A DNA stretch of 59,911 nt, the filler included, from Catajapyx aquilonaris (lineage: Eukaryota): NCBI GenBank assembly GCA_000934665.2. It is 3 parts of 3 records of this genome, joined end to end, with 100 filler letters (N's around TTAATTAATTAA, not from the genome) between each part and the next. Parts side by side here need not be neighbours in the genome. Positions count along the whole stretch, not along the records: positions 39,997 to 59,911 come from JYFJ02006369.1; 2 more parts are not named here. One strand, given 5' to 3'. Of this stretch, positions 1-59,911 are shown piece after piece; the stretch's first letter is position 1; every line of letters starts with the position of its first letter. A program made the position numbers and the translations under genes. Below the pieces are notes generated by a model that was not told the DNA's origin, made no database searches, and worked only from the letters and a program-made list of their open reading frames with translations.

Positions 1-25
1 TCAGAACAGTTCCCGAATTATACTC

Positions 26-39996: not shown

Positions 39997-40634
39997 TAGG
40001 GCGATAGGGCACTACCGTAATGTGACGGTGGACCGCTCCAGGCCTCCCCTGCACTCCATTGCAAACATTTTAAATTTGTAAATTATTACACATATCTGTA
40101 CATTATTTTGTACATATTTATTTATTTATTTATGACTTGTACACATTTGTAAATTATTCGGCTTAAAAGGCGTGTGCTTATTATTGTGAATAAAAAAACA
40201 ATGTTATTTCAAGTATTTGTTGCGTAATTCCTGACACCCCCACGACCCGACAGAGCATACGTCACTGACGTCGACAGCGGCAATGTCGCCAACGTCCACG
40301 CGACCCGACACGAGACGACGCGTTGGTGTCGCGCTGGGGGGCGTTGGGGGGCCGATTGTGACGTCACACTGCACCTGCCAAAAACACAACCTTTGTTACC
40401 GACGACACGACACGACACGACGCATTGGTGTCGCGTTGTGGGGGCGTTGGGGCGTCAGCTGTGACGTCACACGACTTCCCACGGCGTCCACAGCGCATCA
40501 TTGACCCACATAGCATCCGACCAAGGTGTACAACAAAAGAGAGAGATACAGTTAATTTTTATTTTAATTGCATAAAATTACAAAATGGTATTGGACAGGC
40601 ACACCCTATGTTTCCCCCCTGCGCGCGACACGCA

Positions 40635-40880
40635 GGTGTTAACTGACAGGAAACCAAAGTGTTCCTTCCAACACCTGAGGCACATCCCTTTAAATTCCGA
40701 AAATGATTCTATGTCGCTGGAACAGTGGTCCTCGTATATTTTCCGCAGGTTTCGGTCGCATTGTTTGAATATGAACAGCATGGAAGCATTGTCTCTTATG
40801 AGGGCTGCTGGGACTCGGGTATAGGTCTGCGCCAGGTAGAAACAGCTCACGGCCCGATGGCGACCATGTGTAAAACATGT
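40635..40880 (-). pseudogene. Polinton/adintovirus A32-like packaging ATPase, C-terminal fragment
   Basis: HGRHRAVSCFYLAQTYTRVPAALIRDNASMLFIFKQ...FKGMCLRCWKEHFGFL. Confidence 0.85.
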
Positions 40881-40884
40881 GGGT

Positions 40885-41150
40885 AACGCAGGTCTGTTTG
40901 GGGTCTACATAGATAAATTCCTGAAGATGATGAAGCAGGAAGCCTCCGGATGGCCTGATTGGTGCAAGACATCTGATGACCATGAGAAGTATGTGGCAGA
41001 CTACATGGCTCGCGAGGGAGTGACTCTCGAATCAGGCAAGATCATCAAGAATTCTGGTCTGAGGACACTGGCAAAACTGCTGTTGGGCGATATGCAATGA
41101 ACCCGGCCAAACCACGCACTAAGGCTGTACATACAGCGGAGCAGTTGTGG
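40885..41150 (+). pseudogene. Polinton/adintovirus protein-primed family B DNA polymerase fragment
   Basis: LFGVYIDKFLKMMKQEASGWPDWC...EGVTLE...KNSGLRTLAKLLL, then frameshifted RYAMNP. Confidence 0.9.
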
Positions 41151-41689
41151 GGGGTCCTGCTACAAAGCTCTACGCCCGATATCTCGACTCACAATTTTCC
41201 ACGGAATGCTGGGACGATCATGTGAACTGTGCCGAGGAGCATGAAGCCCAGCGGCGGTGGCAGTGGAACCGGTCTATGGTCCAGGCCCTTACCGGGAAAA
41301 TTACCCCTCCATGTACAGTGGAACGGGTGGCATCTGTAGTCGGAGAAGAAGAGATGGAGGTGGAGGAGGGAGATGGTACGGCTGGTGTTGACGACGACGA
41401 TGATTTTTACGTAGGGGAATACCACCTCTATGTTGAAGGAGAAGAAGTAGACGAAGTTGAAGTGATATTAGAAGAAGAAGAAGGTGTTGGAGAAGGAAAA
41501 GTCGAAGAGTCAGCGGGTGGTTGTGAATTCCCCATCCCTCGCAGGAGCCATCCCACCCGAATTGAGGGGATACTTCGGGTGCCGACAGCGAGACCAGCCA
41601 TTCTCCCACCCTGGCCATCGGTAGACGATGACAGTCACATATTCTCACGCCTTCGTCGTCCTCGTCGTCGTCGACCGACATCTGAGTGA
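41147..41689 (+). CDS. Unknown acidic ORF with basic tail
   Basis: 180 codons, E/D-rich centre and RLRRPRRRR tail; no family recognised, no ATG start. Confidence 0.3.
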   Translation: MGGPATKLYARYLDSQFSTECWDDHVNCAEEHEAQRRWQWNRSMVQALTGKITPPCTVERVASVVGEEEMEVEEGDGTAGVDDDDDFYVGEYHLYVEGEEVDEVEVILEEEEGVGEGKVEESAGGCEFPIPRRSHPTRIEGILRVPTARPAILPPWPSVDDDSHIFSRLRRPRRRRPTSE

Positions 41690-42180
41690 AGACCCTGGTT
41701 TGACGAGATGTGGTAATAACCATAGGTGCATAGTTGATGTACAGGATCAAACATAAGCTGTTAATAAAGTTAGTAACATTGTTTTGAGCAGACATTTGAA
41801 ATATCGCTTGTTTTTTCCCTTACACATTAAATTTGGTTATTTGCAGATGTACGGATTGTAGGATTGGTTTGAATGTAAGGACGCTATCTAGTCGCGAAAA
41901 AAAATATGCTGGAGTTGCATGATACACCTTGACATTACATCTTAATGACCTTACAGCGTTGAATGGGTTTTTGGGTGATTCACTTTCAGATGGAGGGGTT
42001 TAGATAAATCCTCGAAAGAGTACAGCCTGAAAGGATATAGGTCTCCTAGGAGTTAATCTTTAGAGTATAACGCACACTGTTATACCACCTGATTATTCTG
42101 AGTTGAAAAGAAAGTCCGGTATATACGTGTATTAAATAATTAGAGGAGAGTACCTTCTGCTGATATTAGGTGTTAATAAA

Positions 42181-42489
42181 AATTGTATCACGGGCCATTA
42201 TTTGGTATACCACGATTATAGCGTGGTGTTGCAAACAGGCGACGGGCAAGAGCCAACCCCTAGGGGGAGTCTATCTTTGTAATCTGTGGTCACCCTCGGC
42301 GAGCGGCGTACGGTGGTACTAACCCGTGAAGATGGAAGAAAACTTCTAGTAGACCCCCTGCGACTCAGAACCGGCCATGGAACATGCATACTTGTGAAAC
42401 CTCCGACTCCTAGTAAGTGGTTTTTTGAGATCCCTAAAGACAATTTCTCCCCGGGTGTCGGTATTGTTTTGATATTTCAAAGAGTTTAA
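42181..42489 (+). pseudogene. Unknown protein family, copy A
   Basis: Protein-level homology to 48173-48466; in-frame stop at 42280-42282. Confidence 0.65.
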
Positions 42490-42784
42490 TATAATTGTGC
42501 ACATGAAAGTAAAATCGGATGTTTTTTTCCACCTTATATTCATTTTCAGGTGTAAGGATTTGATTGACTTAAGGATTAGGAGATTAAGGGTTTAAGGCTC
42601 TTGTCCGTCGTCTGTTTGGAATGTTGTCGTCTCACTACGTCACTGATTCTAGCTCTACTCTTGCTAAGTTGGATTTGTCAGAGCCAATGCTTGGAATGTT
42701 GACCCGCCCACTACGCCATGCAAATATGCGAATATGCTAATATACAGTCGTATGAAAAGCGTCAATTACAATGGTGTAATTCCT

Positions 42785-45700
42785 GGTGATTGCAGAATTT
42801 AAAGTCATTGCATGTGTGATGGGCATCCAGGGTGGATATGTTAAATACGAAATACCCGTGTTACCACTGCCTGTGGGATAGCCGGGCAGATGACCTACAT
42901 TTCAAGCAGCGAGACTGGCCTGACAGGACGGATTTCACCGAAGGGGAGTTCAACATCCAAAACTCACCGCTCGTCGAAGGATTACAAATCCTAATGTCCC
43001 CACTGCATTTAAAATTAGGATTGATGAAACAATTCGTGAAGGTGTTAGACCAAGATATGTTTCAGCTGAAACGAAAGTTACATTTTCAAGCTAGCTCGAA
43101 AATTTTAATACGACCGCATATTTAAATGATCCTAACTTGCGACATACCCTTTTTTGTTTACAGAGTAAAGAGCATTTAAATACCTGCAAACTCTCTTCCT
43201 TCGCCTATCTGACAAGCAAACCTCCTAGGTGTGGGGATCTACTTTTTGCTGAAACTTTCAGGAATGATTAAGACTAGCTTCAGGATCACTATGGCATAGT
43301 CCAAACCTCTGTAAAATTCCCAGAATCCTCAGAAATTAACTCCAAACCTAATAATTGTGGGAAGCTACTTTTTGCTGAAACTTTCAGGAATGATTAAGAC
43401 TAGCTTCAGGATCACTCTGGCATAGTCCAAACCGCTATAAAATTCCCAGGAGCCCCAAATATTTGGTCCGAATTTGCAACCTTTTTGTGTAGCGTCTTTC
43501 CCAATGCTTGATTTTCCGCCTGAAATATCGGGTTTTTCACGATTTAGAAAAGAAAATCTGGTTTTTGGAACAGTCGGGAGGGAAAGGATGAAAGCGATTC
43601 TATTAATAATAACCCCCCCTAGAGAAACACAGCTAGTCCCCCCTTTCTTTGCTGCACGTGTTCATCTCTGCATCCGCACCTGATCAGCCAGTTGGCCTCA
43701 CTGGCTGTCACTTGGCAGCTGCTTTCTTTGCCCTCTTCCTCGTAATTCTGTGACTCCAATTTGCTTCTTTTGTGTCCTTATCACACCCCTCCTGAACATG
43801 TCCGAAAATCCAGGATCAGCTTTGTTCAGTGACCAAACGGCCCTTATTAGCGCAATCGACCGATCCTGACCAGATCACGACCAGAAGCAAAGGCAGGACA
43901 CCACGCATCATAAACATTACCAAAGTTATTGCGTTGATCTGCCAGAAGCACCGTGTGTCGATGACCCGTCTCCAAGCGCTCATTAATGAAAACATCGATG
44001 TCAACCAGTACGAAGACCTAGAGGTTTTCCTGGACCAAATCCTATATCCAGGAATGGTCAAGATGGGTGTCACCAAGAGTCTCCTTCTCTGCGACTCTTG
44101 GAGTAGCAACAAAAATAGTGAACTCTTCCAGCGTGTCGCCACCAGGTATGATACACCCGCCAGCTCGAGGTGGAACGGCTGATCATTCCCGCTGGCACCA
44201 CCACCGGAATGATTCAGCCGCTGGACGTGTACTACTTTCGCCCATACAAGAGATTTGTACGGCACATAACTGATTCTATGGATATTGACGAGAAGGTCTG
44301 GCAGCGGGAGCGCTACATGAAGCTTCATGCTCTTGCACACTTCCAGTTCCAAGCGCCACGCTTCCAGAATATGGTCAAGTAAGCATTCTGGAAGTGTGGA
44401 TATACTCCCGAGCGACCTGAAGCCTTTGAAGAGACCCCGGTACAGTACTGTTTGGACTTTGACAGTCTTTGTGACTGCGCCGAAGATATCTGCACCGAGG
44501 TTTCCGAGTTCCGCTGTGCGCACTGTAAGAAATGCTTCTGCTTCCATCACTGTTTGTTGGAAAAGGTGCATGATGCAGCGAACTGTGGGACCTATTAAGT
44601 TGGGTAACTGACAGTTTTTGTATAATAATAAATTACCAACTTTGTCCACATAAACTTATGTTTAAAACAGCTCACAGTCAAACAAAGTAGAGTGCTTGCT
44701 GTTAGGCTGCACGGAGAGGGCATTTGGGTTCACCTTTTCATATAGGCGATTGCAAGTGTCAGTTTGGGCGGCAGACCCAATCGTACGCCCGGACTTTCGA
44801 CGCAATCTCGGGGGCTCCTGGGAATTTTATAGCGGTTTGGACTATGCCAGAGTGATCCTGAAGCTAGTCTTAATCATTCCTGAAAGTTTCAGCAAAAAGT
44901 AGCTTCCCACAATTATTAGGTTTGGAGTTAATTTCTGAGGATTCTGGGAATTTTACAGAGGTTTGGACTATGCCAGAGTGATCCTGAAGCTAGGCTTAAT
45001 CATTCCTGAAAGTTTCAGCAAAAAGTAGATCCCCACACCTAGGAGGTTTGCTTGTGAGGCACAAGTTAAAGGTGGGATCTTCATCTGCCCTCAAATAAAC
45101 ACAGCTCTAAAATCGGAGGAGTTTCTCAAAAAACTCAAACCAAAGGAGAAGAAAGCCTGGAGAAGTTTTGGAGACATTGTAGAAAACTTCCTTGGGAACA
45201 ACAAAGCGGACAACTACGAGAAGATTGTCAACGATTTAGTCCTCAACTACGGGGACATGGGCTGCTGAATCACACATCAGCAATTTTTTAACAATTTTGC
45301 ACAATTTTTTTTTTTTGAAAAATTCACCCCCTCCCACCCCACCCCCAATTTCGCGAGTCCTAAGGGATGAAATGAAAGGAACTACGGTCCAAATCAACCA
45401 AATGGGTCTAAGTAACAAGTGGGCAAAGTTGTTTGCTTTTATCACAAAATGCAGTTTTCTGTTGATATTTTCATCGTACCGCGGGGACTATATCATTTTG
45501 AGGGATATAAGAGAGTCTCAGCAAACACTCCCCCCCCCCTCCCCAAATGAAGTCAGAGAATAGGACACATGGTCGTAACAGCATTTAAGCCTGCGGGAAA
45601 CAAGCCTTTCTGGCACGAGTTATAATTAGGAAACAGTTCAGCAGAGGCGCAAAGGTCCAAACCGTTGACCCGAGAGACCACGATCTATGATTTCTTAGCG

Positions 45701-46534
45701 TGAGATGCAGTTGCTTGCGGACCTTATTGTATAGTACAGACCGTTGCCACAGGCGTGCTTTTTGATGTCGCCAAAATCGACTGTTGGTACCATCTTGGGA
45801 ACAATGACAAAAAATTTCTGATTTCGCTGCAGGGAAAGGCATGGAGAGATTAGTTCATAAAATTCGGAGGAGCAATTTTTTTTGCTACTTGCCCTTGAGC
45901 TTGTCGAGAATATATTTCGTCAGGATAATACTGTGAGTTCTGCTTGTCCTATTATTACGACTTTTTCTTTATTGATTCGCAGACGTACAACTTCTGGTAG
46001 TTATTGTTACTGTATGAGGATGTAGACATTTAAAATCAACTGCATATTAATATCGTATGATAGTACTGTAGGGTGGTTCCATTTCAGATCAGCCAGTGAG
46101 TGAAAAAAGGTGTCAGGTCCTAGTCATCGATTTTTTTGAAAAAAATATATGTGAAACCAACATCCAATTGAACTCTTATGGAGCAATCAGTTTTACTAGA
46201 TTAAATTTAGTTATCGAGATATTAATATTTCTTTGAAGGGGTACCAAAATCACAATCACGCGAAGACGCACTTTTTCCCGCTTTTTCCATTGCTTTCAAT
46301 TAGGAAAACTTCCTAGACGCCCACCTCGACATATGTAAGGACAATATGGGTGCCTACTCTGAGGAACATGGTGAGCGGTTCCATCAGGATATCAAGCAGT
46401 TCGAGTCACGATATCAAGGCCAGTACAGATTCAACATGCTCGGCGATTACATTTGGAACTTTAGGGAGAACTTTAGGGAGAGCGATCTCGAACACAAGAG
46501 GAAGTCCTCAAAAACTGCCCGTTTTGACGTGTGA
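42785..46534 (+). pseudogene. Chapaev (CMC)-type transposase split into pieces (42785-43050, 43163-43212, 45055-45266, 46306-46534)
   Basis: TKYPCYHCLWDSR, PLHLKLGLMKQFVK, LSEAQVKGGIFICPQI, ENFLGNNKADNY, GAYSEEHGERFHQDI. Confidence 0.85.
43213..45054 (+). mobile_element. Tc4/Tc5-like DNA transposon with ~245-bp TIRs and a degraded transposase (~43990-44600)
   Basis: TIR starts CAAG; TGA duplicated within a CTGAG target; LLLCDSWS, TTGMIQPLDVYYFRPYK and C-terminal Cys/His cluster. Confidence 0.85.
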
Positions 46535-47319
46535 ATGTTAAATAAACAGACAACTGTTGTTAAGACGTACCAAATGCACTCGAATTACTAAATTGTAAGC
46601 CCTGTACCTCCACACCACCCGTAAACGAAGGCTACCATCTTTCTTTAAGTGTTTGCAAAAGATCGTAAATTAATGTTCAACTCCAAGCAGCAGAAGGAGT
46701 CCAGAAAGGTTTGTATCCACATAACATATTTACCTGATGCTTATGTTCCTATACTTGTGGTAATCACAGAACAGGCCTAAATACAATGCAAGGTTCATTA
46801 ATCCTAGATCATGTCAAAATATTTTCTTATGTGTGCCCAACAACACGCACCATGTGTTAGTGAATGTGCTATCTTTCTTCTTGCTACATGCGTACTTCTC
46901 CGCATGTTGTGTAGTGTTGTTCTTAAGAATTCTTACTTTCATGCAATATGTCATTATATTTTCATCACGTCACTCTGCAATTCATTTTTGAATGAAGATC
47001 TGATATGCAACATGATACAAGGCACACTAGAACCAGAGTTCTTGCGAGAACAATTACCCTTTAGCATAATGTGGAGATCACTGAGTGAATTGATTTTAAG
47101 CAACTAAAGTATCTGACTTGGATCATCCTGTATCTCAGATGTTCATTCATTGTCGTGGAGCTTAACTGAATACCGAGTTCCAATGCAGTATGTAAGGCAC
47201 ATAAAGTGTAATGCAATAAGTGCACAGAACCTACTTATATTCAATGTAGGCCTCTCTCAGAGTCCTGGTAGGTTCCTGTCTTATCTTAATGTAGATTCTA
47301 CTATGTAGCGAAAATTGGC

Positions 47320-47810
47320 TCGCTGACATATTTGGAAAATGAGTGAAATTACGATGTCTTTGCAGGGGAAAACTATAACAACTTTCTCAGCCCAAGACAA
47401 AATAAAATCACATCACTGAAGACCAAAATTAATTTTTTTGATGGATTGTATTGAAGAAGAAACATTTGGTCTTTTGGATCAGTTTGTCAGAGAAGATGAA
47501 TTGCAAATCGGAGATGATGTTAAAAGAAAATATTTGTCAGCATTTGAAGCTACTCGAGCAATCTCTGTCAGAGTACTTCCCAGACACAAACCTGGATACT
47601 GACTGGGTACGAAACCCATTTGAAGTTCGTCAGAAACCTCCTTCGTTTTCTGTACCAGTGTATGAGAAGTTCATTGAACTTACATGCGATTCAAATTTAA
47701 AAGCCAAATTTGCGTCCATGTCACTGAATGAATTTTGGGTTGGATTGCTCTGAGTACCCAACCATACCCAAAAGAGCAGTTCTCACCCTTCTCCCTTTTG
47801 TAACGACCTA
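47320..47810 (+). pseudogene. hAT Buster-type transposase fragment
   Basis: LADIF..SLQGK, YFPD..WVRNPF, EFW..EYPTI..LLPFVTTY. Confidence 0.85.
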
Positions 47811-48172
47811 TAGATTGAAGGGAAACAATCGAGCCAGTCATGAGATGATGTGCAATATGTGTGGAATGAAGTTACTGAGTAAGAATGAAAGAAAAAATTA
47901 TTTATTTGAAGAAGTTAAGGGAGTCAGTTTGGCTCAGGTCTTACTGAGAGGATGTCAGAATGGGAAGTACCTAGTTTCGGCCAATTTCCTCCGAGCTTGG
48001 TCGGTCAAGATGATAGATGGACAGAAAGTCATTGATCAAATTCACAGCTGTTGGTTATGTAGCGGCTTAAGAGCATAACATTTTTCTGGTTATATGAAGA
48101 TTGGGGAGGTTTGGGATGAGGTATATTTCGATTACCATCTGAGCAAACACGCTAGATCCCCTGACGAAATAT

Positions 48173-48466
48173 CAGTTTAACTTTGTGTTGGCGAATCGAT
48201 TGTCTAACGGTCGGTATAGCATTGCACTGCATAAAGAGGTGAGTGCGAACGCTTCGGAGGCCTTTGCTATTGTCACCTTGGGGAGTCGACGCTCTGTAAT
48301 AATGACGTCAAAAGATGCTGTAAAATTTCACTTGGAGCCTCTGGTTATGAAATCAGCGATTGGTCATTGTATTATTGTGAAACCCCCTACTGCAACCTTA
48401 TGGTATCTCGAGGTGCCTGAAGACAGCTGTGGGGTTTCTATTGTATTAATTTTACAACAGGTGTAA
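48173..48466 (+). pseudogene. Unknown protein family, copy B (possibly extending upstream to ~47840 across a frameshift)
   Basis: Protein-level homology to 42181-42489. Confidence 0.65.
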
Positions 48467-49141
48467 TAAAATGCCCGTAGAAAAGAGTCACCAAAATTTG
48501 TATAATATTTCATACCGCACCTTATTTTTGTCATTTTTCAGAAATACAAACGTCACTTTCTGCATTTTCAACATTTTCTGCATTTTTCTGGGTTAGGAGT
48601 TGCTGGGTTACCTGCTGACCGGATACTGGATGGTGTAGATGGCTAGCTAAATCCGGAAGGGAAAGTGCATTCTCTAAGGATAAGTTCAAACGTAGATTTA
48701 TCTCCACTCAAACCACTTGCGCTTATTCGAGTTCAGGTTAAAGCATACACCCCCACCAGAACTATATAAACGCATTCCTGCGTTGCTTCGACCTTCATTC
48801 TCAGTTTGGTATCACGCAGTGGTAGCTTCTCATCCTCAGAAGCTGTTCCTTCGGTAAAAGTGAGTAACATCTTCCATACGATAATTTTCGTGCAGTGAAA
48901 ACATATACTCGCATCGCATGTCCTTAGATCTCAGTAAATATCTAGGTCCTGATCGCAAGGCGTTAGATAGGCGTATTCTAGTGTGCAGGAATATTTTGAA
49001 TGAGTAAAGATTTTTACACAAAGTGAAGAGTTCATAAGATATCAAGGTGTAAACATTTTCGTGATTTGCAGTGACTTTTTATTCCTCGCAATATAAAAGT
49101 AATATTGTATACGCTTTGATCACATTTCTTAGATGGGCCTT

Positions 49142-49399
49142 AGATAAAAGAATTGCAGGTGTAATTAGCCAAAGAGGCCTTACCACCTGTGGGCAACAAT
49201 CCAACAATGTCCGGCTCCCAGATCCATAGAGTCTGGGGCCGGGGCATACGAAACGTTCCAAGTCAATATTGTCCCAAGGATGAACCGGAGCCGAAGCCCC
49301 AGGCCCCCGGAACCAGCATTAGCCCAAGCCCCCCTGGGCCAGCGCCCAGGGGGACCAAACCTCCTACCCACGCACACCAACAGCCCAAGAAACAACCAC
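49142..49399 (+). repeat. Direct repeat, copy 1 (copy 2 at 59653-59911)
   Basis: ~258 bp with only a handful of differences. Confidence 0.95.
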
Positions 49400-49508
49400 G
49401 AATATTGTAACCAATAACAGAAAATAAAGAAAAGAGAACCCTCTCAGACCCCACAACCCCACAACTGCAAAAGACATACAACCCCCCCCCCCCCCAANCA
49501 ACCCTCCA

Positions 49509-50119
49509 ATGCTCTCCCGCCAACTCCAATCGCGGCCGACGACATCAATCATGGATCGAGAACAGAAACTTGTCAGCCGCCAAACAGAAACGACTAAGTG
49601 ACGCCCAGTGAAATTATTGTTCATTACTATGGGTAACAAATGATGCCTTCTCAAGACACCATTCTCCATACATGGGTATTGGGATGTAGACTCCTACTCA
49701 TGCAATGAGACAGAAATAGGGCATCTTGAGAACCTGCTCGAGAGTAATACGACCTTCATCAGAGACACCCAGTGATTTCCGCCAAGCGACATCTACGGAT
49801 GCTGCAACTTCCAAGCACATGAGTTTTGTTACCATCATAACAAAATGACCCCTCATGATTACATGAAGAAAATTGATGATATAAATCAACAATTTAACAA
49901 AGAAACATGGTACCCGTTCACATGGATCAAAAACAGGAACCAGTGTATAATTATACAATTATCCAACCAAAACAGACGTACCCCATCGGAAACACAACAC
50001 TGCAACTTCACTTCGTTGAATCCTGTCGAAGGGTTCCCCATTCCCATGAGAAGATATTCCAAGTCTCATCAGATGAAATGGGGGTCTTGGGTCTTCTTGG
50101 CTTTCGATTTTTGCGATGA
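49509..50119 (+). pseudogene. Disrupted unknown ORF directly upstream of the glycoprotein
   Basis: One reading frame broken only by three TGA codons (49599, 49641, 49773). Confidence 0.45.
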
Positions 50120-51963
50120 CTTTAACCGCCATCGATGGCTACCTATCCTTAGAAAAGTCTCAGATCTCAGTTGCCGACCTTTACAAATGCACAAAAAACA
50201 CAGAAAATCCGTACATCCACCCACTGTATAACTGCAGCGGAAAAATAGGATCAACAAGCCCTATTTTGCAGCAGCCATGGATGAAGTTGATTGGTGGATA
50301 CCAAGATCAATGGACATCCACGCTCAATACCTGTCAAGTACAGGTGGGTATCTGGTCTCTGGACACCTCTGCGTGGAACATAAACGTAACCTACTGTCAT
50401 GGTGTCGAGTACACCTCCAAGTATACCTATTGGTTTTTTGGGGGCGCAGACGGAGACCGTGAAGACAACCCCTGTGACGGTAGATGCAGTGTACTGTAAA
50501 AAAAATACATAAGGGAGCTAGATGAAAAGAGGGAAAATGGATACAAGGGGAACCAGATTGGAGAATTTGTTCATGCAAAACATGGCTGGACAGGAACATC
50601 AACAACAATCTCACGGATAATCATGATCTCCAATTTAACGGTAAGTATGGATCATTGGGATCTAAGCATAAAAACTCTGATCCCATTATCTGGACATTGT
50701 CTCTACAACCAAACTTATTGTTACACTGCGGATCATGGGGTCATGATATGGGAAACTATTCCAGATCCCAGTTGGAATAAAGACAAGTGCAATCACAAAC
50801 TAGATGACGTATTGACATGCCATGTGAGTCTCTCCAAGAATACCGTGGCCACTGTAATATGTCCCACCCATGACTCCATGTTTCGTGTAAATATGACAAG
50901 TGCACAGTTATTATGCAGTGTTTCTGACAAATCCATACAACAAAACCTCTGGACATCAATGGAGGGAAAAGTGATATCCTTTATTACCATGAAGGGTACT
51001 GGATGTTTTCTTTCTTCATTCAAGGTTCCAGTCAGCGAGACAGGCTGTTTTGACAAGAAGAAACTCAAGTATGAAGACCCGTTTGGGAATCTGGACCAAC
51101 AAAACTACGTGTACCTCAATATGGCAAAGGTGGATGGAAAGATGCTGGAGCTAATATATCAAACAATCATTATGGTGAGCAACAAGGCAAATCTGGATGC
51201 AAATTCAATAGATTCATCAGGAATTAAGGGACTGGAGATCAGCTGGTTCAACTCAACACATAGGATGTATAGCAAAAAGACATCTGGAACATTGATCCAA
51301 AGATTGTGTACACTGAGTTATGTGAAATGTCTAAAAATAAAAACGGGATTAGACAATGACAAATGTTTGAGGGCTGAGATAACGGATGGCACGATAGTGA
51401 GGTTTGATCCAACAAACATGATTATCGTGAATGAGGAATACGAGTGCCAGTCATATAAAGATTCTCTCCTCTTACTTAAAGACAACACGATTATGGACTT
51501 AACCACTGGGTCCACTGCAAACGGGGCTGTTTTGGCAAACCCTCATCTTCCTTCAATGGAGGTCAGCTCACACGCCTCCTTGACAGCATTAGACCTGGAT
51601 CGGATAAGTTCCCTATCTATGGTGTTCGACCAACTTAATGCACAGTCTCGGACCCTTATGGATGAGACAAACATGTTCCTCGAGCCGTCATTTGACAATG
51701 ACAAATACAAAACCTCTACAGACACCTCCTCAGGTCCATCATTAGAAGGTTGGAAGAACTGGTTATTAGGCCCACTGTGGTCCATATTTGCCTCCCTCAT
51801 CATAACTGTAATCATCATAATCATAACCATTGTCTTACTCAAGTTTGGGACCAAAATGATATTCTGTCCAAAAGACACCAGCTCAGAACATGAATACATT
51901 TATATGAAACCAAACCCACCCAGCAAGAAAGATTTGAACAGATCACACGATGCATTCAGATAA
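50078..51963 (+). pseudogene. Viral type I membrane glycoprotein (~630 aa reconstructed), class III / Mononegavirales-G-like
   Basis: Signal-peptide-like start (one frameshift), Cys-rich ectodomain with YTYWFFG and HGWTG loop-like motifs, several N-x-S/T sequons, C-terminal TM WSIFASLIITVIIIIITIVLL and short tail; compensating homopolymer frameshifts at ~50440 and ~50500; no introns. Confidence 0.75.
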
Positions 51964-52143
51964 TATAACATTTTTTTTAAAAAAAAAGTGTCTTGAGTGG
52001 AGTTGCTCAGGCGTTTGTACGTATGTTGTTTCTGAGTGCTTATAGATAAACTTTTTGAGTGTAATTGGTTAGGATAGTGTTGTTCAGACGGCACAAGTGT
52101 TAATAAAATTAGTCCAGCTTTCCTGAACTAATTTTATTATTTT

Positions 52144-53331
52144 AAGGGGGGAGAGTATGTGATGACCCTGGGTCATGACCTGATGATTAGTGTGCCCCCG
52201 GGTTAGTCCATATTATTCCTCAAAGTTTAATTGCTGCTTATCTTTTTCGTTGCTTCATCCCAACCTACATTCCTTTCCTTTTGCGCTGCTCCGGCTGATG
52301 TAAGGTATTTTGGGCAGCGCGAGGCAGATTGGAATGTTGACCTTTGTACTTGGTGCTGTCTAGTGAATTCTTTCTTTTGCTCTTCTCGGGGTCGCTCAGG
52401 AGCCAATCGGAGTTAGTAATGTAGAGATGTACTTGATGCGGTCATCTTTGGCCATCCGGGTTAATTTTGCGTTTAGTTTTTCTACCAATGATTTCATTCT
52501 GGTCACTCCGAAGCTTGAGCGAGACCGAGGAAAGAAGCCCCAACTTGGGGACAGTTGGCGGGCACCTATGTAGTGAGTAACATGTAATTTCTGACGGACG
52601 CTGTGGCCCAGCCCTTAGCGCGGGGTTGGTTGGGCACTGGGCAGTCGAAATGGGGGTCTTGGGTCTTCTTGGCGTCAATTAGGCGCGTTCCGGTTTTTTT
52701 CCGGACTTAAAACTTTTCTTGTTTGAACTAATGTGAGGCAACCGGCTTGAAATTGTGATAGCCAGGCGTGAGTGGAGTGATGTTTAGTGATCCCTCCAAA
52801 TTGTGCGGATTGAGAGAAAAAGTGACGTGCAACTGGAAGATGATGGCCGAAAAGGACGCTCTGGACAACCTGAGGGAGAAGAGTGGAGCGGGCCAGAAGT
52901 CTGGTCTCGTCTCTGATTGGTCGAGACGATTGGTCTGAAGCCCCCCGATGGTATCTTCACCTTATCGTGGTGGTGGGGTTTGCGTTTCTCCCGTGACCCC
53001 AAGAGCTATGTCGGCGCGGCGGTAGCTTCGTCTACTGGTAGGGCCACCCAAGCCGGACAGGTCTTTGGGATAGGAGACAGACTAAGAGAGATGCCAGTCT
53101 TTCCTCTCCGTTTCTCTCCATCGGTCACACCTTTGCTTCTTCTACAGCCAGATAGCCACAGTTGCTTCGGCTTCTTCCTAACAAACCAAACCAATCTGAA
53201 GCTGCGCTGTGATTGGTCAGTTATCCGAGACTGGCTCATGTAAACTCGGACTATCGCTTGGCCTTTGCCCTTATCAGCAGACCTCTGACCTCGACTAATT
53301 GTTGGCACGCGCCAGGGCTCGTGCCTCATCA
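52144..53331 (+). mobile_element. Polypurine tract (52144-52155) plus putative 3' LTR (52160-53331)
   Basis: aaggggggagag followed within a few nt by TGATGA...TCATCA inverted termini; only one copy in the window so not confirmed. Confidence 0.6.
52958..53090 (+). ncRNA. Structured RNA motif resembling the conserved 5' leader of RTE-clade retrotransposons
   Basis: caccttatcgtggtgg..gagctatgtcggc..ctggtagggccacccaagccggacaggtc..cagactaagag; internal complementarities tgtcggc/gccggaca, tttctcc/ggagac, ggtgg/ccacc. Confidence 0.5.
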
Positions 53332-53999
53332 GTAGAGCTCGGAAAAAACCGCAGCATCAGCAGGGGGGCCCCCACAGGACCTGTGACCACCCACTCCTCC
53401 CCCACCACCTACCTGGCCGCTCACCCGCCCAGGTGACACCCCGACTAAATAGGCCCGCACCTTTAGAGCATTGCAGCCAGCCATACGTCACCTGGACACC
53501 CGCACATGGTCCCACGTGACGCCCCCATCCCACCACACCTCCACCTCTTGAGCTAAAACAGGGGTTCCCGCTGACTGCTAGAACCGAGGGACTCTGGATT
53601 CAGAGTCCAGCGCCATAGCCCCTCGGCCAGCACCCCTTGGTTGGGGGAAGGTGTGTTGGACCCCGTATGCACATGCCTCGCTGTGACGTAGCACAGGAGG
53701 GGTGGGGCTGTTTGGAGGGGCGGGAGCCATTTTAGTTTTTGGCTGGCTGGCTGGGGCGTTGAATATTCACGCAATCTCTGCCTTGGCTTATCAGTCTTGA
53801 GATATAACAACTAGAGAGACTGGAGGTGAGAGGTCACCTAAAAATAACCCCCACCAACTCTATGTAACGGGGGGCATGGGGCAGAGGGGAGGAGGCGACG
53901 CCATGTTGACAAGGCAGCAGCCATTGTGTATCTTGGGCATCTTTTGCATCTTATGTGTGCACTCTGGGTCACCAGCTACTTATGCTGTTATCTTTCCAG

Positions 54000-54352
54000 A
54001 TCTCATTCAAGCAGTATTATAAAATAGCATATGATCTGCATGTCCGTGTCAGGAACCAGCCCATGCTTGTGGCCCAGGTGGGAGACGAGGATCTTCCGGG
54101 ACCATTATGTTTTGTATATATTGTCCCGGAGCTGTGCTGGCCAGTTAGCCATCAGACTGCAGTGGAATCCGGATTACCTAGGGTTATCATATACCCAGAC
54201 ACTGCAGACACTGAGGCTACTGGAGCAGGAGGGACATCTCCACACCCTTGGCAGTCCCCAGTATGTTGGTTAACAGACTTTCATATTCATAAACTCCTGC
54301 TTATTTGTTTTTTTCTCCCTAGGAAAGAGAGCAACAGCAAGACACAGCATAG
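54000..54352 (+). CDS. Isolated PIWI/Argonaute PAZ C-terminal fragment in a small spliced gene (54000-54260, 54323-54352)
   Basis: ISFKQYYKIAYDLHVRVRNQPMLV...VYIVPELC matches the PIWI PAZ pattern ISFxxYYxxxYxxxIxDxxQPML...LxPELC; acceptor tctttccAG, donor GTatgt, acceptor tctccctAG, then stop. Confidence 0.65.
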
Positions 54353-57300
54353 AAATGTGGTTATTTATTTATTTATTATTATTAAGGTTGTACAATATTA
54401 TTGTGAAATATATCAGATCAACTCTATAATAGTCTGGAACCTTGTCCCAGGTGTTTTTCTCCATAAGGACCCATTGTTTAGCCTTACATCGGGCGATTCA
54501 GCAGATATGTTATCACTGCACACCACATTATGGAAGAATAATGCAGATAACGCCGCTTCCTGGTCTGGTCCACTTCATCGTCGAACACCCACAAGTGGGG
54601 GTCCGTGACCCATTCCACATGACCCACATCATTGCCCTGCATGAAGGTACTACATAATTATATAGTGTAATAATTCAGACGCACACCAAAAGGTCAATGA
54701 ACACCACATCCTTCGCATTTTTCATGTCTTGTGGTGTGATTATCCTATCTGAGGGTTGAGGGAAAGATAGGAGCTGTTGGTTGCTGGGTGATATGGAAAT
54801 GAGCCAACATCCTCCAACTTTTTCCAATCATTCCGAGCCATGGTTGCGTGGCGATCACATCATAAACAGAGATTGACAATTGTGTAGCAGAGTGATGACA
54901 GTGAGGAAGATGAAGAGGTGCAAAGGAGACGGCCAGCCTTGCAGGATCAACTCCGGCGACAGAGAGTGAAACAACAACAACGTCGACGCACGTAATGGAG
55001 GTTCCAGTCTGCCGATGCCGGTGGACCCGGTAGCTATATCAGCGATAGAGCGGCGGGCTGGTGTCCTCTATTTGGGGGAAGCTCCATCGGAACATGGCTG
55101 CGAGTAGACATCTGGAAGGTCTTCAGCTTTGGCTGGAGGTGTGGTAGTGGACAATGGACCCGAAGGTGGATGTCAACCGGCCGGTTTATTTTCGTCCATG
55201 ATTATTCGCAGCATGTGCCCAACCTCTTCTCTGCTAGTGCTAAGCTTTGTATACATGGCTAACCTGGCGTTCATATTCGCCCAAACCTCCGTGGCCTGAA
55301 ACCAACCACATTTCTTCCAGACTGGCTGGGCCCCCCTCTTTTTCCGCCATATATGCCCAGTTTTGTTGGCACGATATGGTAATTGGCACGGTATTGGCAC
55401 GAGCTCGGTCTGTTACATTGTTTGTTGGCATCTGCGAGTTTTTTCCCTAAATGTACCTCTTTTGAAACATTGTGCGCTCCGGGGCTTCCAATTATCCGCG
55501 ATCGCTCTAACTGTTCGAACATTAATACACCGTCATCCTGCTGCTCTCGATGGAACTGTTTTTGTGGGAGAGCATGATATGCTGGCCGCGAGCCGATTGT
55601 AAGTAACGACACGTTCGGTCGAGTTGTTTGCATCAGGCGCAATTATATTTTCAGATTCCTGCGTAGTCGAGCGTTTATTTGGGGATGAGCTGCCCAACCT
55701 TTTTGATGAACAGGCCGAATTGGGATACTTGCTGGAGGTGTATAATTGCGAGGTGTGGGATGAGGAGGAGGGCGGTGGCGGGGTGGGATGGTATCGCATT
55801 GTCAGCGACGTTGTCGAGGCGGAATTTGACGGCGGTGAGTTCGTAAATTTATTTAACGAGAGGCCTCTCCCAAATCTCTACTTGGATTGGGCTCTGGGAG
55901 GCGGTCCTTGGCGCTATTACTGTGTCGACGATTTTTAGGAGGAGGATGATGAATGGGTGGGGGAGGCGCTGGTAAATTTATTCAACGAGGCTCCCCTGGA
56001 GGGCTATTATTTGGAATTTGTGGAGCCGGATGATCTGAGCGCGTCATACTGGGCTCATGTTCAGAGTCCGAGCCGGTTGATTGGCATCTTGCGCGACGAG
56101 TTGCCTTTTGCATGGAGCAAAGGATACTAGGAAGCTAATTCACGGTCGCAACCTCCCTCCTTCTTCCCCCCCTCCGATATATGGCACTCCGCACGCCCCG
56201 TCGTTTCACTCGAGCCATGTCAGTCCAAGTGGTTCTGTTTATTGGGGTCGAACCTCACACGTGTTTTAAACTGCGTCAGAGCGAGCAGGTGGTGGGGGTC
56301 TGGAAAGATGCCCACGAGGTTTTGGCGGATCCGGGGCTCATCCCGGCTGGCCTGGCTCACACCTACAGCTATTGCGTGTACCCCTCCTTCACTTGCACTT
56401 GTCGGGTGCAGAAGAAATTCCGTTTGGATATTAATAGCGGCGTCTCTTGGCTCTCTCACGCCTTGTGCCTGGAATGGTATAAGTGCGGGCGCGGGAGTCT
56501 TTCCCGGATATACTGAATCATTTTTCCCTTCCAGATGCTCGGCTACGAGAAGATGGTTCCTTGTCGAGCGGTGTACCACATGACCACGGAACTCTGTCAG
56601 CTGGCCGTTTTCTGCATGTCCGAATTGGACATGCAGAAAACGGCCAGCAATTGACATTCCTCCAAAGTAAACTTGCAGCCAACAACTAAATGGACCAGAA
56701 CCCAACTCTAAGGAACCAGAATTGAAGCAAACTCCAGCATGACGGAACATCAAAGTGCAATACCCAACATCTATGTAATTATTGAGCAAGACCATCTTCA
56801 TCCGTTGTGGAAAATAAAACGTTGCTCTTATGCCACACTCAGATCCATAATTAAGTCTTTTCATACCAAATGACCACTGCATTGGTTACAAAAGTTTCAT
56901 TTAAAAAAAATATATGCAAGTAGCAGCAATGGTCTCCGTAATTACGGTTGTAAGATGTGGTTATTAAAAAAGTATCTGTATCCGAATTTGATGCAGAAGC
57001 AGCGACATTTTGTAGTGATGTGACATCAACTTGCGATGCCTTGGGACACTGCGTGTCAAAACGATCAGTGTGACACAAAAGGTCAAATGTCAGTGACTGA
57101 ACCCAGTCATGTATATTTAGACATGACCGGCTTTATGAAAAATTGTCACATATATTTATGTGACAATTGTGAATTCGACATATATGAAGCTGCTGTCTAT
57201 TCCGGAGATTTGCAAAAAGGTTAGTTCTGTTGCCCAGAATGCGTCATGTTAAAGCTTCGTTTTTTACCTCCCGCATGGTTATTTTCAATGAAACGTTTGC

Positions 57301-57449
57301 TAGCACAAAAAGCTCTGTCGCGCCAAACAAATAAAACCATTACTGCATAAACGTGGAATGAAGCAATTTGCAGCCGCAGTGCTCAGGACATTGCCAGCGC
57401 ATTCTTAACATTTCTCATAGAAATTCGCGATCAGGACCGTGTGATCATA

Positions 57450-59200
57450 CGGCTCGAGAATGGCTCTTCCCAAAATATGACACCAAATCTCTCTACAACA
57501 AGGAAACAGATCAACGCGAGCTCAAGCACAGAGAAAAAATGGTAATGCAGACCATAGTCATAACAGGGAAAGACAAATGCTTCAAATACATGATGGACTT
57601 AATGAGATCATATGGGTCTTACATAAAACACGACGAAAGGTCTAAATTGACCAGGAGAGCCATAGCCTCCCCATCAATCATTCAGAGGATTTTCCTATAC
57701 ATCGTTGAGGACTTCCATTTGGAACTGGGAAAGGAACTTCCTGACTCAACAATCTCCATAGGCGGCGAAGAAGAAGAAAAAAAAGGCTAAAATCACAACC
57801 GAATTGACGGCGGGATCCAAGGAAGGAATTTTAATGCCAAAAACAGTCCAAGCAACTGAGGACGCAACAAAATGGAATGAATGCTTAAGCGTGGAGTGTT
57901 TCTCTCTCTTCCATGACACAATTTTGGGTGAAGAAGCAAGAAGTTTAACTGGTCTACCAAGACCTAATTCAAATGAAAGACTCTTCAACCAAATACTCCA
58001 AGCCTCACATTTCAACCTAGCAGTAAAGCGCATTTTCCTAAATGAAGGCCCCATCTGCATTCAAAAGTCTGAATATAAGCGAGTACCTTATTCCACCCAA
58101 AACATAAGCAGATTCAATGATAATACCAAAGAATGGGTTTCCCAAGCAGAAAAGCTATTCGATGACAACTACCTAACTGCTAGCCCTGGAATGCTCATGG
58201 GAATGCACAACGCACTGTCAACTACCATCAGGCTACTAGCCGAGAACTTCCTGTTGGACACCACCAAAAGCAATGTTACCACACTCAGGTCGAGTGACGA
58301 CTCCATGACTGTTTTTACAAGAATTGATGATGAATCAATGATAGAGGCCCTACACTCTAACGATTATTGCCTCAAACTCCTAGGAATCAACATCAGTGAC
58401 TCCAAATCTTGGCTGTGCAAGGAATCTTTTGGTGAGTTTACGTCATGGTACCAAGACGGTCAATTCATTGCCCAATTTGGGGTGGAAACCGCCAACATGA
58501 GAGCTGGTGGCCAAAACCCAACAGATGACTTCTTTCAAATAGCAAAGAGCACTGCAAGCTCTCTATCCCGCTTAGAGATGAACCACTGAGGAGCACATTG
58601 CAAGCTGCCAATCGGCATTGACAATGTAAGAAGGTTGTGGAGAATTGAACAAACCCTTCACAAAAGGCAAAATGTGTCTCCCAAAATCCTGGTTCTTGCT
58701 GACGGAGGCCATAGGACCCCACTAACGCTCATCTGGAAGAAACCAGCATTAAATCAATGTGGACAACAACCAAAGAAGAGAAGGAGTACCTATTTAAGAT
58801 AAGGAATCCTGAAAACCCTTTCTCTGCAGCTGCCGAGGAAGAAATAAGTTTTCCAAAGGAAACAAACAGCATTTGTTTGACGCTACTTGAAAATCCTAGG
58901 ACTGTCTTCAACTTCATGAAGAGAAGCAATAGAACTGGTTTGAATAGGGGCAAAGACAATCTAGAAAATGAGAAGTCCAACCTGCATGCTCTTCAAATCC
59001 CTAACCTTATTGATTGCTCAACACTTCTAAAGGTGCCTTCACAGACCTCCACTATTGCAAGTCATCTGACCGGGATGTTAGAGACATACGCGTCCATATT
59101 TAAACTTAGTGACAAAGAGCTTAAATTATTGGCAGACGCCCAAAATAGATTAAGGAATGTAGACACTGATGATGAGAGCCAAACTTTAGACTTTTGTTAG
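57450..59200 (+). pseudogene. PB1: Endogenous orthomyxovirus (quaranjavirus-like) PB1 RdRp, central and C-terminal part
   Basis: RRAIASP, TEDATKWNECL (motif A), SPGMLMGMHNALSTT (B), RSSDDS (C), LLGINIS..KS (D), EFTSWYQDG (E); frameshift ~57780, stop 58587-58589, lesion ~58710, native stop 59198-59200. Confidence 0.95.
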
Positions 59201-59222
59201 AGGACACACACAATGTGTAAAT

Positions 59223-59244
59223 TGAAAAGAGCCTTGTTTCTACT
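59223..59244 (+). promoter_or_regulatory. Orthomyxovirus segment terminus
   Basis: tgaaaagag then CCTTGTTTCTACT (59232-59244), the complement of the conserved influenza A 5' vRNA end AGUAGAAACAAGG, 31 nt after the PB1 stop. Confidence 0.85.
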
Positions 59245-59352
59245 GGCTGCCATCAACTCGGAACTGATTAGCGCAAACGAAATCATTTTGCGGTACTTGG
59301 TCCCAGGACATACATTCATGTCGGCAGACGGAATTCATGGGAAAATCGGTTC
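59245..59352 (+). pseudogene. DDE transposase fragment (Sola1-like)
   Basis: IILRYLVPGHTFMSADGIHGKI resembles the FLxxGHTxMxxDSxH motif. Confidence 0.55.
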
Positions 59353-59355
59353 CTA

Positions 59356-59589
59356 ATGGACGCAGTTCGGATGCCTAACGCTCCACAAATTCAGTTTTAC
59401 GGAAAATATTGGTTTGTGCAAGTTAAGCTATACAGTAACTCACCCTACATCCTCACAAGAGAATATGCCGACCTGGATTTGAATGGGGCAGGCAGCAAGT
59501 TGCNCCCCCCCCCCAAGTTAGTACCAAACTTGATAGGAGCATTGCAAGAGATCGAGTCAGATCTCCGAGGAAAAGGGTATACATTCTAA
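59356..59589 (+). CDS. Small PC4/Sub1-like ssDNA-binding-domain ORF
   Basis: GKYWFVQVKLYSNSPYILTREY...LIGALQEIESDL aligns by eye with PC4 [22 protein letters not shown]...LKEQISDIDDAV; AATAAA follows. Confidence 0.45.
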   Translation: MDAVRMPNAPQIQFYGKYWFVQVKLYSNSPYILTREYADLDLNGAGSKLXPPPKLVPNLIGALQEIESDLRGKGYTF

Positions 59590-59652
59590 TGTGATATCGT
59601 GTTTCTCTCGTAGTAATAAAAATAATTAGCCAATTCTCTCATAGTACCAGCA

Positions 59653-59911
59653 AGATAAAAGGAATTGCAGGTGTAATTAGCCAAAGAGGCCTTACCACCT
59701 GTGGGCAACAAACCAACAATGTCCGGCTCCCAGATCCATAGGGTCTGGGGCCGGGGCATACGAAACGTTCCAAGTCAATATTGTCCCAAGGAAGAACAGG
59801 AGCCGAAGCCCCAGGCCCCCGGAACCAGCATTAGCCCAAGCCCCCCTGGGCCAGCGCTCAGGGGGACCAAACCTCCTACCCACGCACACCAACAGCCCAA
59901 GAAAAAACCAC
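59653..59911 (+). repeat. Direct repeat, copy 2, running off the window end
   Basis: Near-identical to 49142-49399. Confidence 0.95.

Follow-up and report, generated by a model that had tools for sequence, protein, structure and literature searches.

A gene-poor mosaic of co-oriented transposon and viral fragments in Catajapyx aquilonaris as a candidate uni-strand piRNA source locus

The stretch of DNA analysed here (the window, 59,911 nucleotides from Catajapyx aquilonaris, GCA_000934665.2) consists of three ~20-kb pieces joined via artificial N spacers. One spacer (39897..39996, N44-TTAATTAATTAA-N44) is non-genomic sequence that joins piece 2 to piece 3, and an identical one lies at 19888-19987. 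The mosaic described below is the whole third piece (JYFJ02006369.1), of which 19.9 kb is visible; its right edge is cut by the window end and its left edge is artificial. Because position 39997 is the first base directly after a spacer, piece 2 need not be the left neighbour of piece 3. Stop-to-stop ORFs of 30 aa or more, 446 in total (208 on the plus strand, 238 on the minus strand), were searched against Pfam, which returned matches in only five ORFs and three families (Tc5, PAZ and Flu_PB1), all on the plus strand and all representing transposon, endogenous viral element (EVE) or gene-fragment content, in agreement with the original prediction that no intact host gene is present. About half of the 20 kb carries no annotation (45.3-46.3, 48.5-49.1, 52.0-54.0 and 54.2-57.5 kb). 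The 52-56 kb interval, with a negative AT skew and many minus-strand ORFs of 70-123 aa, could hide unrecognised minus-strand elements. The third piece is, with near certainty, a gene-poor graveyard that arose through one insertion after another, some of them nested. A mosaic of viral and transposon fragments, as predicted, does exist, but several of its named parts were found by no tool and are less secure.

A Tc5/pogo-like DNA transposon of 1.85 kb occupies 43209..45058 on the plus strand. Its 248-bp terminal inverted repeats (43209-43456 and 44811-45058) are 98.8% identical, each arm containing two subrepeats of ~121-126 bp (TRF period 126), and decayed transposase remnants at 43796-44595 end in the Tc5 transposase C-terminal domain (44383-44595, plus strand, PF04236, Pfam E 3.7e-11). 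The transposase domain together with the inverted ends places the element in Tc5/pogo and bears out the Tc5-like fragment first proposed. A TA target-site duplication is a feature of Tc5/pogo transposons, and no clear one is readable at the 43209 and 45058 flanks. This transposon is nested inside a second, transposase-like element on the same strand, whose pieces lie at 42820..43122 (placed by motif positions, with no Pfam match), at 45059..45265 (motif positions; also given from 45029), directly after the right end of the Tc5-like element, and at 46304..46531 (motif positions). The last two are separated by a ~1-kb insert without a family name (45266..46303), which holds a repeat (46145-46303) 85.5% identical, in inverted orientation, to window positions 23-171. 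The three pieces represent one event, because they lie in order on one strand and are split by the Tc5-like element and the ~1-kb insert. The interrupted element may be Chapaev-like, judging from its motifs. Thus, the transposase-like pieces predicted on the plus strand are present, but the name Chapaev was given by no tool, none of the pieces has a Pfam match, and the three count as one.

Further fragments, likewise on the plus strand, surround these elements. The ORF segment 40840-41097 gave 26 of 30 ESM Atlas matches in the DNA_pol_B_2 set, with scores of 0.95-0.97 and a recognition value of 1829, below the tool's mark of 2300; it is a lead for a protein-primed B-family DNA polymerase of the Polinton/Maverick type (40840..41222), broken by a frameshift, with the extension to 41222 read by eye. 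The predicted PolB fragment is thus a candidate from a language model, but it has no Pfam match, including PF03175. The Polinton ATPase that had been placed on the minus strand was not recovered: no frame offers a plausible Walker A context, and no minus-strand ORF has a Pfam or PHROGs match. Other Polinton companion genes (packaging ATPase, integrase, capsid) were likewise absent from the Pfam and PHROGs results on both strands.

Two copies of an AlkB-like (2OG-Fe(II) dioxygenase) fragment were found, the C-terminal 68 residues at 42283..42486 and a longer piece at 48143..48463, sharing 49% identity (BLASTP, E 1e-24). The second copy matches human ALKBH2 residues 96-187 (phmmer against PDB, E 0.0014; no Pfam family up to E 5), and the aligned position of the iron-binding H-x-D reads H-x-E. 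It follows a hAT-like C-terminal fragment in two frames (47442..48075), which ends near 48075; the abrupt junction is real, but the ORF beyond it, from 48143, previously called unknown, is the AlkB-like fragment just described as the longer of two copies. At the other end of the piece, an ORF unrelated to PB1 begins at 59201, directly after the PB1 stop codon (59198-59200), the second of the abrupt junctions that had been noted. This ORF contains a DDE-transposase-like fragment (59201..59353). By its motifs the fragment at 47442..48075 may be hAT-like, and that at 59201..59353 Sola-like; neither name was given by a tool, and Pfam and PDB searches returned no match for either. A direct repeat has copies at 49142..49399 and 59653..59911 on the plus strand, the latter cut by the window end (97.3% identity over 259 bp). 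Apart from this repeat, self-comparison showed no pair of the kind that the proposed LTR would require, Pfam detected no retrotransposon domain among the 446 ORFs on either strand, and nothing was found of a proposed PC4-like piece.

The best-supported viral component is an endogenous orthomyxovirus-like (quaranja-like) PB1 fossil at 57491..59200 on the plus strand. Flu_PB1 (PF00602) was matched in three plus-strand ORFs, 57362-57787, 57762-58586 (E 9.2e-31) and 58715-59197, with HMM scores of 107.2 and 50.3 bits against a curated cut-off of 26.4, and 74 relatives with E<=0.001 were found among 3400 candidates, the best having 47% identity over 98% of the query. The named relatives are insect and arthropod orthomyxo- and quaranja-like PB1 proteins. 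The fossil spans PB1 residues ~224-792 of ~797, so that its 5' part is missing while the 3' end is complete, and retains the TEDATKWNE and SSDDS motifs. It is interrupted by one in-frame stop (58587-58589) and by two homopolymer-associated frameshifts (57760-57846 and 58712-58721). On each side it directly borders an unrelated ORF, and the HMM match together with a disrupted frame in what is, as assembled, non-viral DNA identifies it as a non-retroviral EVE, confirming the PB1 fragment of the original prediction. Compared with insect quaranja-like PB1 (Dipteran, Phasmatodean and Raphidiopteran orthomyxo-related viruses OKIAV; Cotesiavirus orthomyxi), it is 41-47% identical over the polymerase core and keeps the SDD motif, whereas it lacks the first ~223 residues, is frame-broken and is embedded in non-viral DNA.

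An orphan gene fossil resembling a viral glycoprotein lies 5.5 kb away at 50073..51963, on the same strand. Its main frame covers 50077-51960, with a candidate ATG at 50073 in a different frame, and after one in-frame stop (50497-50499) it stays open for 487 codons. This ORF encodes 19 Cys, seven N-x-S/T sites and a type-I membrane layout, with a C-terminal hydrophobic anchor (residues 429-447 of 487) and a 40-residue tail. For 50500-51960, the top Atlas clusters are Monjiviricetes_fusion and rhabdovirus G (score 0.96; 203 of 256 features common; recognition 1893, below the tool's mark), and rabies virus G accounts for five of six phmmer matches against PDB, at E 0.1-0.25. These weak signals point to a rhabdo/Monjiviricetes-like G as a lead. 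In comparison with Monjiviricetes class III fusion glycoproteins (rhabdovirus G, chuvirus-like G), the type-I layout, Cys-richness and length are similar, but the orphan ORF has no Pfam match even at E 5 (PF24664 and PF00974 included). No sequence relative was found among 1.84 billion representative proteins, and a single-sequence AlphaFold2 model had a mean pLDDT of 38, unusable for fold. The viral G assignment is therefore upheld by the Atlas lead and by the rank of rabies G in PDB, but not by any HMM, and the E values stay at 0.1-0.25. An A9 run at 51979..51987 (plus strand), preceded by T8 and located 16 nt after the glycoprotein stop codon, may be what is left of an mRNA poly(A) tail or of a viral gene-end signal. 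An exact 27-bp direct repeat (E 6e-9) has one copy overlapping the start of the glycoprotein gene (50075-50101) and another at 52647..52673 on the plus strand. The two fossils derive from different virus groups and are both lightly decayed. Of the at least three virus groups that had been proposed as targets, the orthomyxovirus-like one is firmly established and the remainder is not firm.

The predicted PAZ fragment was also recovered, as a single exon-like piece of the PIWI clade at 54000..54145 on the plus strand. It falls in ORF 53910-54605 (ORF residues 30-82, Pfam E 1.1e-7), and its best PDB match is Drosophila Piwi 288-337 (E 0.005). Immediately before this piece come a polypyrimidine tract and AG (53985-53999). 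The similarity extends over ~50 residues and fades after a PELC motif. No N, MID or PIWI domain of a PIWI-clade Argonaute gene was found among the 208 plus-strand ORFs of at least 30 aa, and the exon is not shared by any protein in a collection of 5.8 billion sequences.

Each tool-recognised remnant is thus on the plus strand, as had been predicted, while the one minus-strand exception that had been named, the ATPase, was not found. Pfam is the only strand-symmetric test, and its result of three of three families on plus (two-sided ~0.25) is not significant alone. The seven tool-supported features (PolB, two AlkB-like, Tc5-like, glycoprotein, PAZ and PB1) are all on plus (two-sided binomial 0.016), but this value is affected by ascertainment bias: the four features beyond the Pfam set came from plus-strand ORFs named in the original prediction, as did the Atlas queries and most PDB queries. 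The count becomes ten of ten once the pieces named by motifs are included. On the minus strand, no signal was obtained by Pfam on the 238 ORFs of at least 30 aa, by PHROGs on ORFs of at least 70 aa or by PDB search of the three longest ORFs. The plus strand has 20 ORFs of 100 aa or more and the minus strand 12, both above locally shuffled sequence (5.5 per strand). With seven to ten independent events, an all-one-strand arrangement is expected by chance in ~0.2-1.6% of such windows, and this window was picked from hundreds. The shared orientation rests on few independent insertions, a small sample.

Dense, nested and fragmentary transposon content without intact host genes, as in a uni-strand cluster, was found here. 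Together with the two viral fossils and the plus orientation, the structural prerequisites for a TE-EVE uni-strand cluster plausibly hold. Our tentative reading, to which we give slightly less than an even chance, is that this DNA belongs to a uni-strand piRNA source locus. Minus-strand transcription from a promoter lying to the right of the window would yield a long precursor, and its processing would release piRNAs antisense to transposon and viral messages. Insertions in the productive orientation, both harmless and useful at such a site, would be retained, and recombination with mobile-element DNA may have brought in the viral fragments as by-products. If the function is real, this would be a further arthropod TE-EVE piRNA cluster, one dominated by DNA transposons unlike the fly and mosquito examples. 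A stronger version, namely an active cluster that archives a relative-less viral glycoprotein, carries a PIWI-type PAZ exon in its antisense precursor and has a DNA-transposon build, is hardly to be expected in all its parts jointly. If true, piRNAs directed via the PAZ exon against a paralogue of the pathway's own effector could form a feedback loop, and the build from DNA transposons rather than LTR elements, as in flies and mosquitoes, would indicate a different route of viral capture. Whatever the piRNA status, the PB1 fossil and the 487-codon glycoprotein ORF are markers of past infections in this lineage.

The same features could belong to an ordinary transposon-rich intergenic or heterochromatic stretch without small-RNA function, the shared orientation reflecting chance, nesting and the easier recognition of plus-strand frames in the original prediction. 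This is a serious possibility, although we hold it to be appreciably below an even chance. It is favoured by the small symmetric Pfam sample, by the reduction of the three Chapaev pieces to one event, by the excess of long ORFs over shuffled sequence on both strands, by the unannotated half of the sequence and by the selection of this window from 533 noted windows of the genome. However, the orientation is uniform across all seven tool-supported features and all ten with those named by motifs, nothing was recognised among the 238 minus-strand ORFs, and two unrelated viral fossils are co-oriented. In addition, the EVE hotspots of similar type described in the literature usually act as sources of piRNAs (PMC6580184; PMC7161354; bioRxiv 10.1101/127498).

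Three other explanations carry less weight. A host transcription unit on the minus strand may include this DNA in a long intron or an untranslated region, where antisense insertions are tolerated without piRNA production. It is for retroelements that selection on orientation within introns is best documented, whereas the third piece holds mainly DNA-transposon remnants, and the 238 minus-strand ORFs yielded no recognisable host exon. This makes such a host unit improbable, even though the genome has intron-rich genes with intronic transposons, among them the Aquarius gene in piece 2, which contains a mariner-like remnant on the strand opposite to its own. The PAZ piece may instead be a working exon belonging to a PIWI-family gene on the plus strand whose giant introns are filled with transposons, as suggested by its PIWI-clade match and by homology that begins exactly after the polypyrimidine tract and AG. 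The lack of any further Argonaute/PIWI domain among the 208 plus-strand ORFs, the absence of the exon from the 5.8-billion-sequence collection and the loss of similarity after PELC render this very unlikely, and sense-oriented transposons within a gene would be unusual. An assembly chimera, in which unrelated repeats and viral reads were joined by the assembler so that the mosaic is not one molecule, would account for the abrupt junctions, the single N bases at 49498 and 59504 and the homopolymer-associated frameshifts. However, neither end of the Tc5-like element is missing, the interrupted element continues at the very point where the Tc5-like one stops, and the disruptions in both viral fossils are typical of genomic decay; a chimera is accordingly the least probable of these explanations.

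The candidate piRNA source locus can be compared with three known systems. Drosophila flamenco is dominated by gypsy-type LTR elements and exceeds 100 kb, in contrast to the 19.9 kb visible here. Flamenco is a one-way array of nested transposon fragments, an arrangement for which the present locus is a candidate, and is thought to be transcribed antisense to its fragments from a single promoter (PMC7161354). In Aedes aegypti, a 143-kb flamenco-like cluster (EVE cluster 38) consists of TE-EVE hybrids that share one coding strand; one long antisense transcript runs through it, and this same arrangement makes antisense piRNAs (PMC7161354). Unidirectional EVE/TE loci are described in a second report (bioRxiv 10.1101/127498). 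The present locus resembles these in having viral fossils of different virus groups among transposon fragments, those recognised by a tool all on one coding strand, within a gene-free, repeat-rich region (PMC7161354; bioRxiv 10.1101/127498). The Aedes EVEs are flanked by Ty3/gypsy and Pao-Bel LTR fragments, whereas the recognisable neighbours in the 20 kb visible here are DNA-transposon remnants, and no LTR-retrotransposon coding remnant adjoins the viral fossils. For the Aedes cluster, measurements exist of the antisense transcript, of phased piRNAs and of PIWI loading (PMC7161354; bioRxiv 10.1101/127498). The Ixodes scapularis hotspot on scaffold DS826508 covers ~75 kb, is enriched in non-LTR retrotransposons and has small-RNA evidence (PMC6580184); in that tick, piRNA clusters are the preferred location of NIRVS, and 90.9% of the small RNAs derived from them are antisense. 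That hotspot brings together Orthomyxoviridae, Mononegavirales and Bunyavirales fossils (PMC6580184), and the closeness of an orthomyxovirus-like PB1 to a candidate mononegavirus-like fossil is what the present locus has in common with it. TE-EVE piRNA clusters as such are an established idea for mosquitoes and ticks.

The viral and transposon mosaic of the third piece of the window is real, and its anatomy, which can now be seen more clearly, departs in part from the first description. Spacers (N44-TTAATTAATTAA-N44) at 19888-19987 and 39897-39996 split the window into three pieces of ~19.9 kb, and because the window is a concatenation with spacers, features of different pieces are not to be taken as neighbours. 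The third piece spans exactly 39997-59911, its left edge being artificial and its right edge the window end. The second piece, which holds an intron-rich gene for the intron-binding helicase Aquarius at 23501-32440 (+), need not adjoin it in the genome. Between Aquarius exons, on the opposite strand, lies a mariner-type transposase remnant (24340-24660), and the repeat that bears it (24071-24877) has a 93.5% identical copy at 13462-14279 in the first piece. Long palindromic or inverted self-matches were also seen in the first two pieces, at 9570-10339, 4756-5333, 11326-11511, 18276-18700 and 28125-28291, with identities of 85-95% except for 18276-18700 (only 69%); these are likely foldback or MITE-type elements.

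All stop-to-stop ORFs of at least 30 aa in the third piece (n = 446; 208 on + and 238 on -) were each compared with Pfam. Matches were obtained in just 5 of the 446, from three families and all on +: the Tc5 transposase C-terminal domain (44383-44595, E 3.7e-11), PAZ (residues 30-82 of the ORF at 53910-54605, E 1.1e-7) and Flu_PB1, in three consecutive ORFs (57362-57787, 57762-58586 and 58715-59197; best E 9.2e-31). A relaxed Pfam search, with E allowed up to 5, yielded chance-level matches only for 28 candidate ORFs, none of the 97 ORFs reaching 70 aa matched PHROGs, and Rfam, tRNA and tandem-repeat scans found nothing apart from subrepeats of the Tc5-like element. In PDB, nothing meaningful was matched by the minus ORFs of 279, 221 and 172 aa, the three longest. 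The original prediction had placed a Polinton ATPase on the minus strand; two Walker A regex matches were found, neither in a plausible P-loop or ATPase context, and no minus ORF had a family match, so that this claim is not confirmed, nor are those of an LTR and a PC4-like piece, neither of which was found in the third piece. The longest minus frame, 279 aa at 43819-44655 (-), overlaps the Tc5-like transposase remnant in antisense; it matched no family and nothing in PDB, and it probably exists as a by-product of the Tc5-like sense frame.

The clearest viral remnant is that of the polymerase subunit PB1. Using its central ORF (275 residues) as the query, 74 proteins with E<=0.001 were found among 3400 candidates, the closest having 47% identity across 98% of the query; those that bear names are PB1 proteins of insect or arthropod orthomyxo-/quaranja-like viruses. 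A tblastn comparison with four viral PB1 relatives as queries placed PB1 residues ~224-792 (full length ~797) at 57491-59194, with the frame changing from 2 to 3 and back to 2, showing that the fossil is without the first ~223 residues and extends to the natural C-terminus. It is disrupted by two frameshifts (one within 57760-57846, the other within 58712-58721) and by one in-frame stop (58587-58589), and it retains the polymerase motifs TEDATKWNE and SSDDS. The PB1 stop codon (59198-59200) is not followed by a poly(A), and an unrelated ORF begins at 59201, straight after it. Both the PB1 remnant on + and the abrupt junction at its end thus stand as predicted. The DDE-like piece beyond the junction (59201-59353) is putatively Sola-like, judged from its motifs. 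Provided that the assembly is contiguous, the PB1 fossil is securely a non-retroviral endogenous viral element.

A second viral fossil is suggested by the largest ORF of the third piece, a glycoprotein-like ORF of 487 aa at 50500-51960 (+), which shares its frame with 50077-50496, the two being parted by one in-frame stop (50497-50499); the ATG at 50073, a candidate start, is in a different frame. The product has 19 Cys, seven N-x-S/T sites and one hydrophobic anchor near the C-terminus, followed by a 40-residue tail, and an A9 run, preceded by T8, lies 16 nt past the stop. No relatives were found in a word-seeded protein search, by phmmer among 1.84 billion representatives or in viral contigs, and no Pfam family matched, even at E 5; a single-sequence AlphaFold2 model was unusable (mean pLDDT 38). 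However, ESM Atlas placed the product among Monjiviricetes_fusion and rhabdovirus G clusters (score 0.96, 203/256 features), with a recognition value of 1893 that is below the tool's 2300 mark, and five of the six PDB phmmer matches are rabies virus G (residues ~107-177, E 0.1-0.25). These two signals are weak and independent and agree in direction. We interpret the ORF, the viral G of the original prediction, as the fossil, with light decay, of a class-III-type glycoprotein whose source would be an unsampled lineage of negative-strand viruses, the family being putative. An exact 27-bp direct repeat is also present, its first copy (50075-50101) overlapping the glycoprotein start and its second (52647-52673) sitting 660 bp past the A-run. 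It was considered as a LINE target-site duplication and rejected, since no poly(A) precedes the 3' copy.

The predicted PAZ fragment on + was recovered by Pfam and also matches the PIWI clade in PDB, with Drosophila Piwi residues 288-337 as the best hit (E 0.005), followed by the PAZ domain of Piwi-like protein 1. The homology begins exactly after a polypyrimidine tract and AG (53985-53999), and the piece resembles a copied exon that brought its intron flank along. Pfam detected no further Argonaute domain in the 208 + ORFs of at least 30 aa, and no protein sharing the piece, longer relatives included, was found in a large protein collection. It is best read as an isolated gene fragment rather than a working gene.

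Transposon remnants occupy 40.0-49.1 kb. In a self-comparison, a 248-bp inverted repeat, 98.8% identical (43209-43456 and 44811-45058), was found to bracket the Tc5 domain, each arm containing two ~121-126-bp subrepeats, and this domain is therefore part of a complete-ended 1.85-kb Tc5-like element, upholding the predicted + strand copy. Immediately flanking this element are two pieces of another transposase-like protein (42820-43122 and 45029-45265); a third, at 46304-46531, is preceded by a further ~1-kb insert with a repeat common to the first piece of the window. Since the three pieces are in order on one strand, they represent one element with two nested insertions, and not three separate co-oriented events. 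By its motifs the interrupted protein may be 'Chapaev', no tool having given the name, and the piece at 47442-48075 may be hAT-like on the same kind of basis. The ORF after the latter (48143-48463, +) is present as predicted but is not unknown, since it matches human ALKBH2 residues 96-187 (PDB, E 0.0014) contiguously, with no intron; its iron-binding H-x-D reads H-x-E. A second AlkB-like (2OG-Fe(II) dioxygenase) copy, 49% identical, lies at 42283-42486 (+), and these fragments may come from a gene that a mobile element carried or captured. The predicted PolB fragment (40840-41097, +, with a continuation to ~41222 in a different frame) is supported by ESM Atlas, where 26/30 matches belong to the DNA_pol_B_2 set (scores 0.95-0.97), but not by Pfam, and it had no match in viral contigs or PDB. 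The stretch just past it (41123-41819), acidic and of low complexity, carries a long open frame on either strand, 188 aa on + and 172 aa on -, with no family match.

A direct repeat, R (49142-49399 and 59653-59911; 97.3% identical, 10.5 kb apart), brackets the glycoprotein, the PAZ piece, PB1 and the DDE piece. As the window ends within its second copy, an LTR pair, copies of a repeat family and a tandem duplication are not distinguishable; the specific proposal of two LTRs of one retrotransposon was rejected, since the interval between the copies holds no gag/pol remnant and the second one is truncated. Both viral fossils carry few disruptions, and a rough estimate puts their neutral divergence since integration on the order of 1%. 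This is close to the divergence of the Tc5-like ends (1.2%) and of the R copies (2.7%), and therefore this part of the mosaic looks young. The CpG observed/expected ratio differs strongly along the third piece, from 0.43 (PB1 fossil) and 0.50 (R plus glycoprotein) to 0.93 at the PolB-bearing left end, a variation that may reflect different ages or source compositions.

The claim that all fragments lie on + holds for the features that tools support (PolB, two AlkB-like, Tc5-like, G, PAZ and PB1), 7/7 on + (two-sided binomial 0.016), or 10/10 (0.002) with the three features named by their motifs. However, the Atlas and most PDB queries were chosen among + ORFs already named in the original prediction, and the strand-symmetric Pfam scan alone gives 3/3 families on +, which is not significant (n = 3, ~0.25 two-sided). 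Furthermore, this 1-in-60 to 1-in-500 pattern is not decisive, because the window is one selected out of hundreds (533 in this genome were noted). About half of the third piece is without annotation; the 52-56 kb region has a negative AT skew and many minus ORFs of 70-123 aa. ORFs of at least 100 aa number 20 on + and 12 on -, compared with 5.5 per strand in locally shuffled sequence, so that long ORFs are in excess on both strands. A uni-strand piRNA cluster would be a reasonable, if tentative, reading of the third piece. That it is an ordinary repeat-rich stretch appears somewhat less probable, though still a serious contender, and three further rival readings receive smaller shares than the ordinary stretch.

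Unlike the published TE-EVE (transposon and endogenous viral element) loci, the third piece has no retrotransposon remnant beside its viral fossils. Among those loci, a 143-kb TE-EVE hybrid region of Aedes aegypti with one coding strand is transcribed in antisense into one long RNA and yields phased piRNAs (PMC7161354), and unidirectional EVE/TE loci make antisense piRNAs (bioRxiv 10.1101/127498). The account of Ixodes scapularis describes a hotspot with orthomyxo-, mononega- and bunya-like fossils, and non-retroviral viral fossils (NIRVS) preferentially in piRNA clusters, with 90.9% of NIRVS small RNAs antisense (PMC6580184); an EVE that restrains its cognate virus from replicating in the ovaries of Aedes is likewise reported (PMC7522710). 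These published clusters make the piRNA reading of the third piece plausible and not new.
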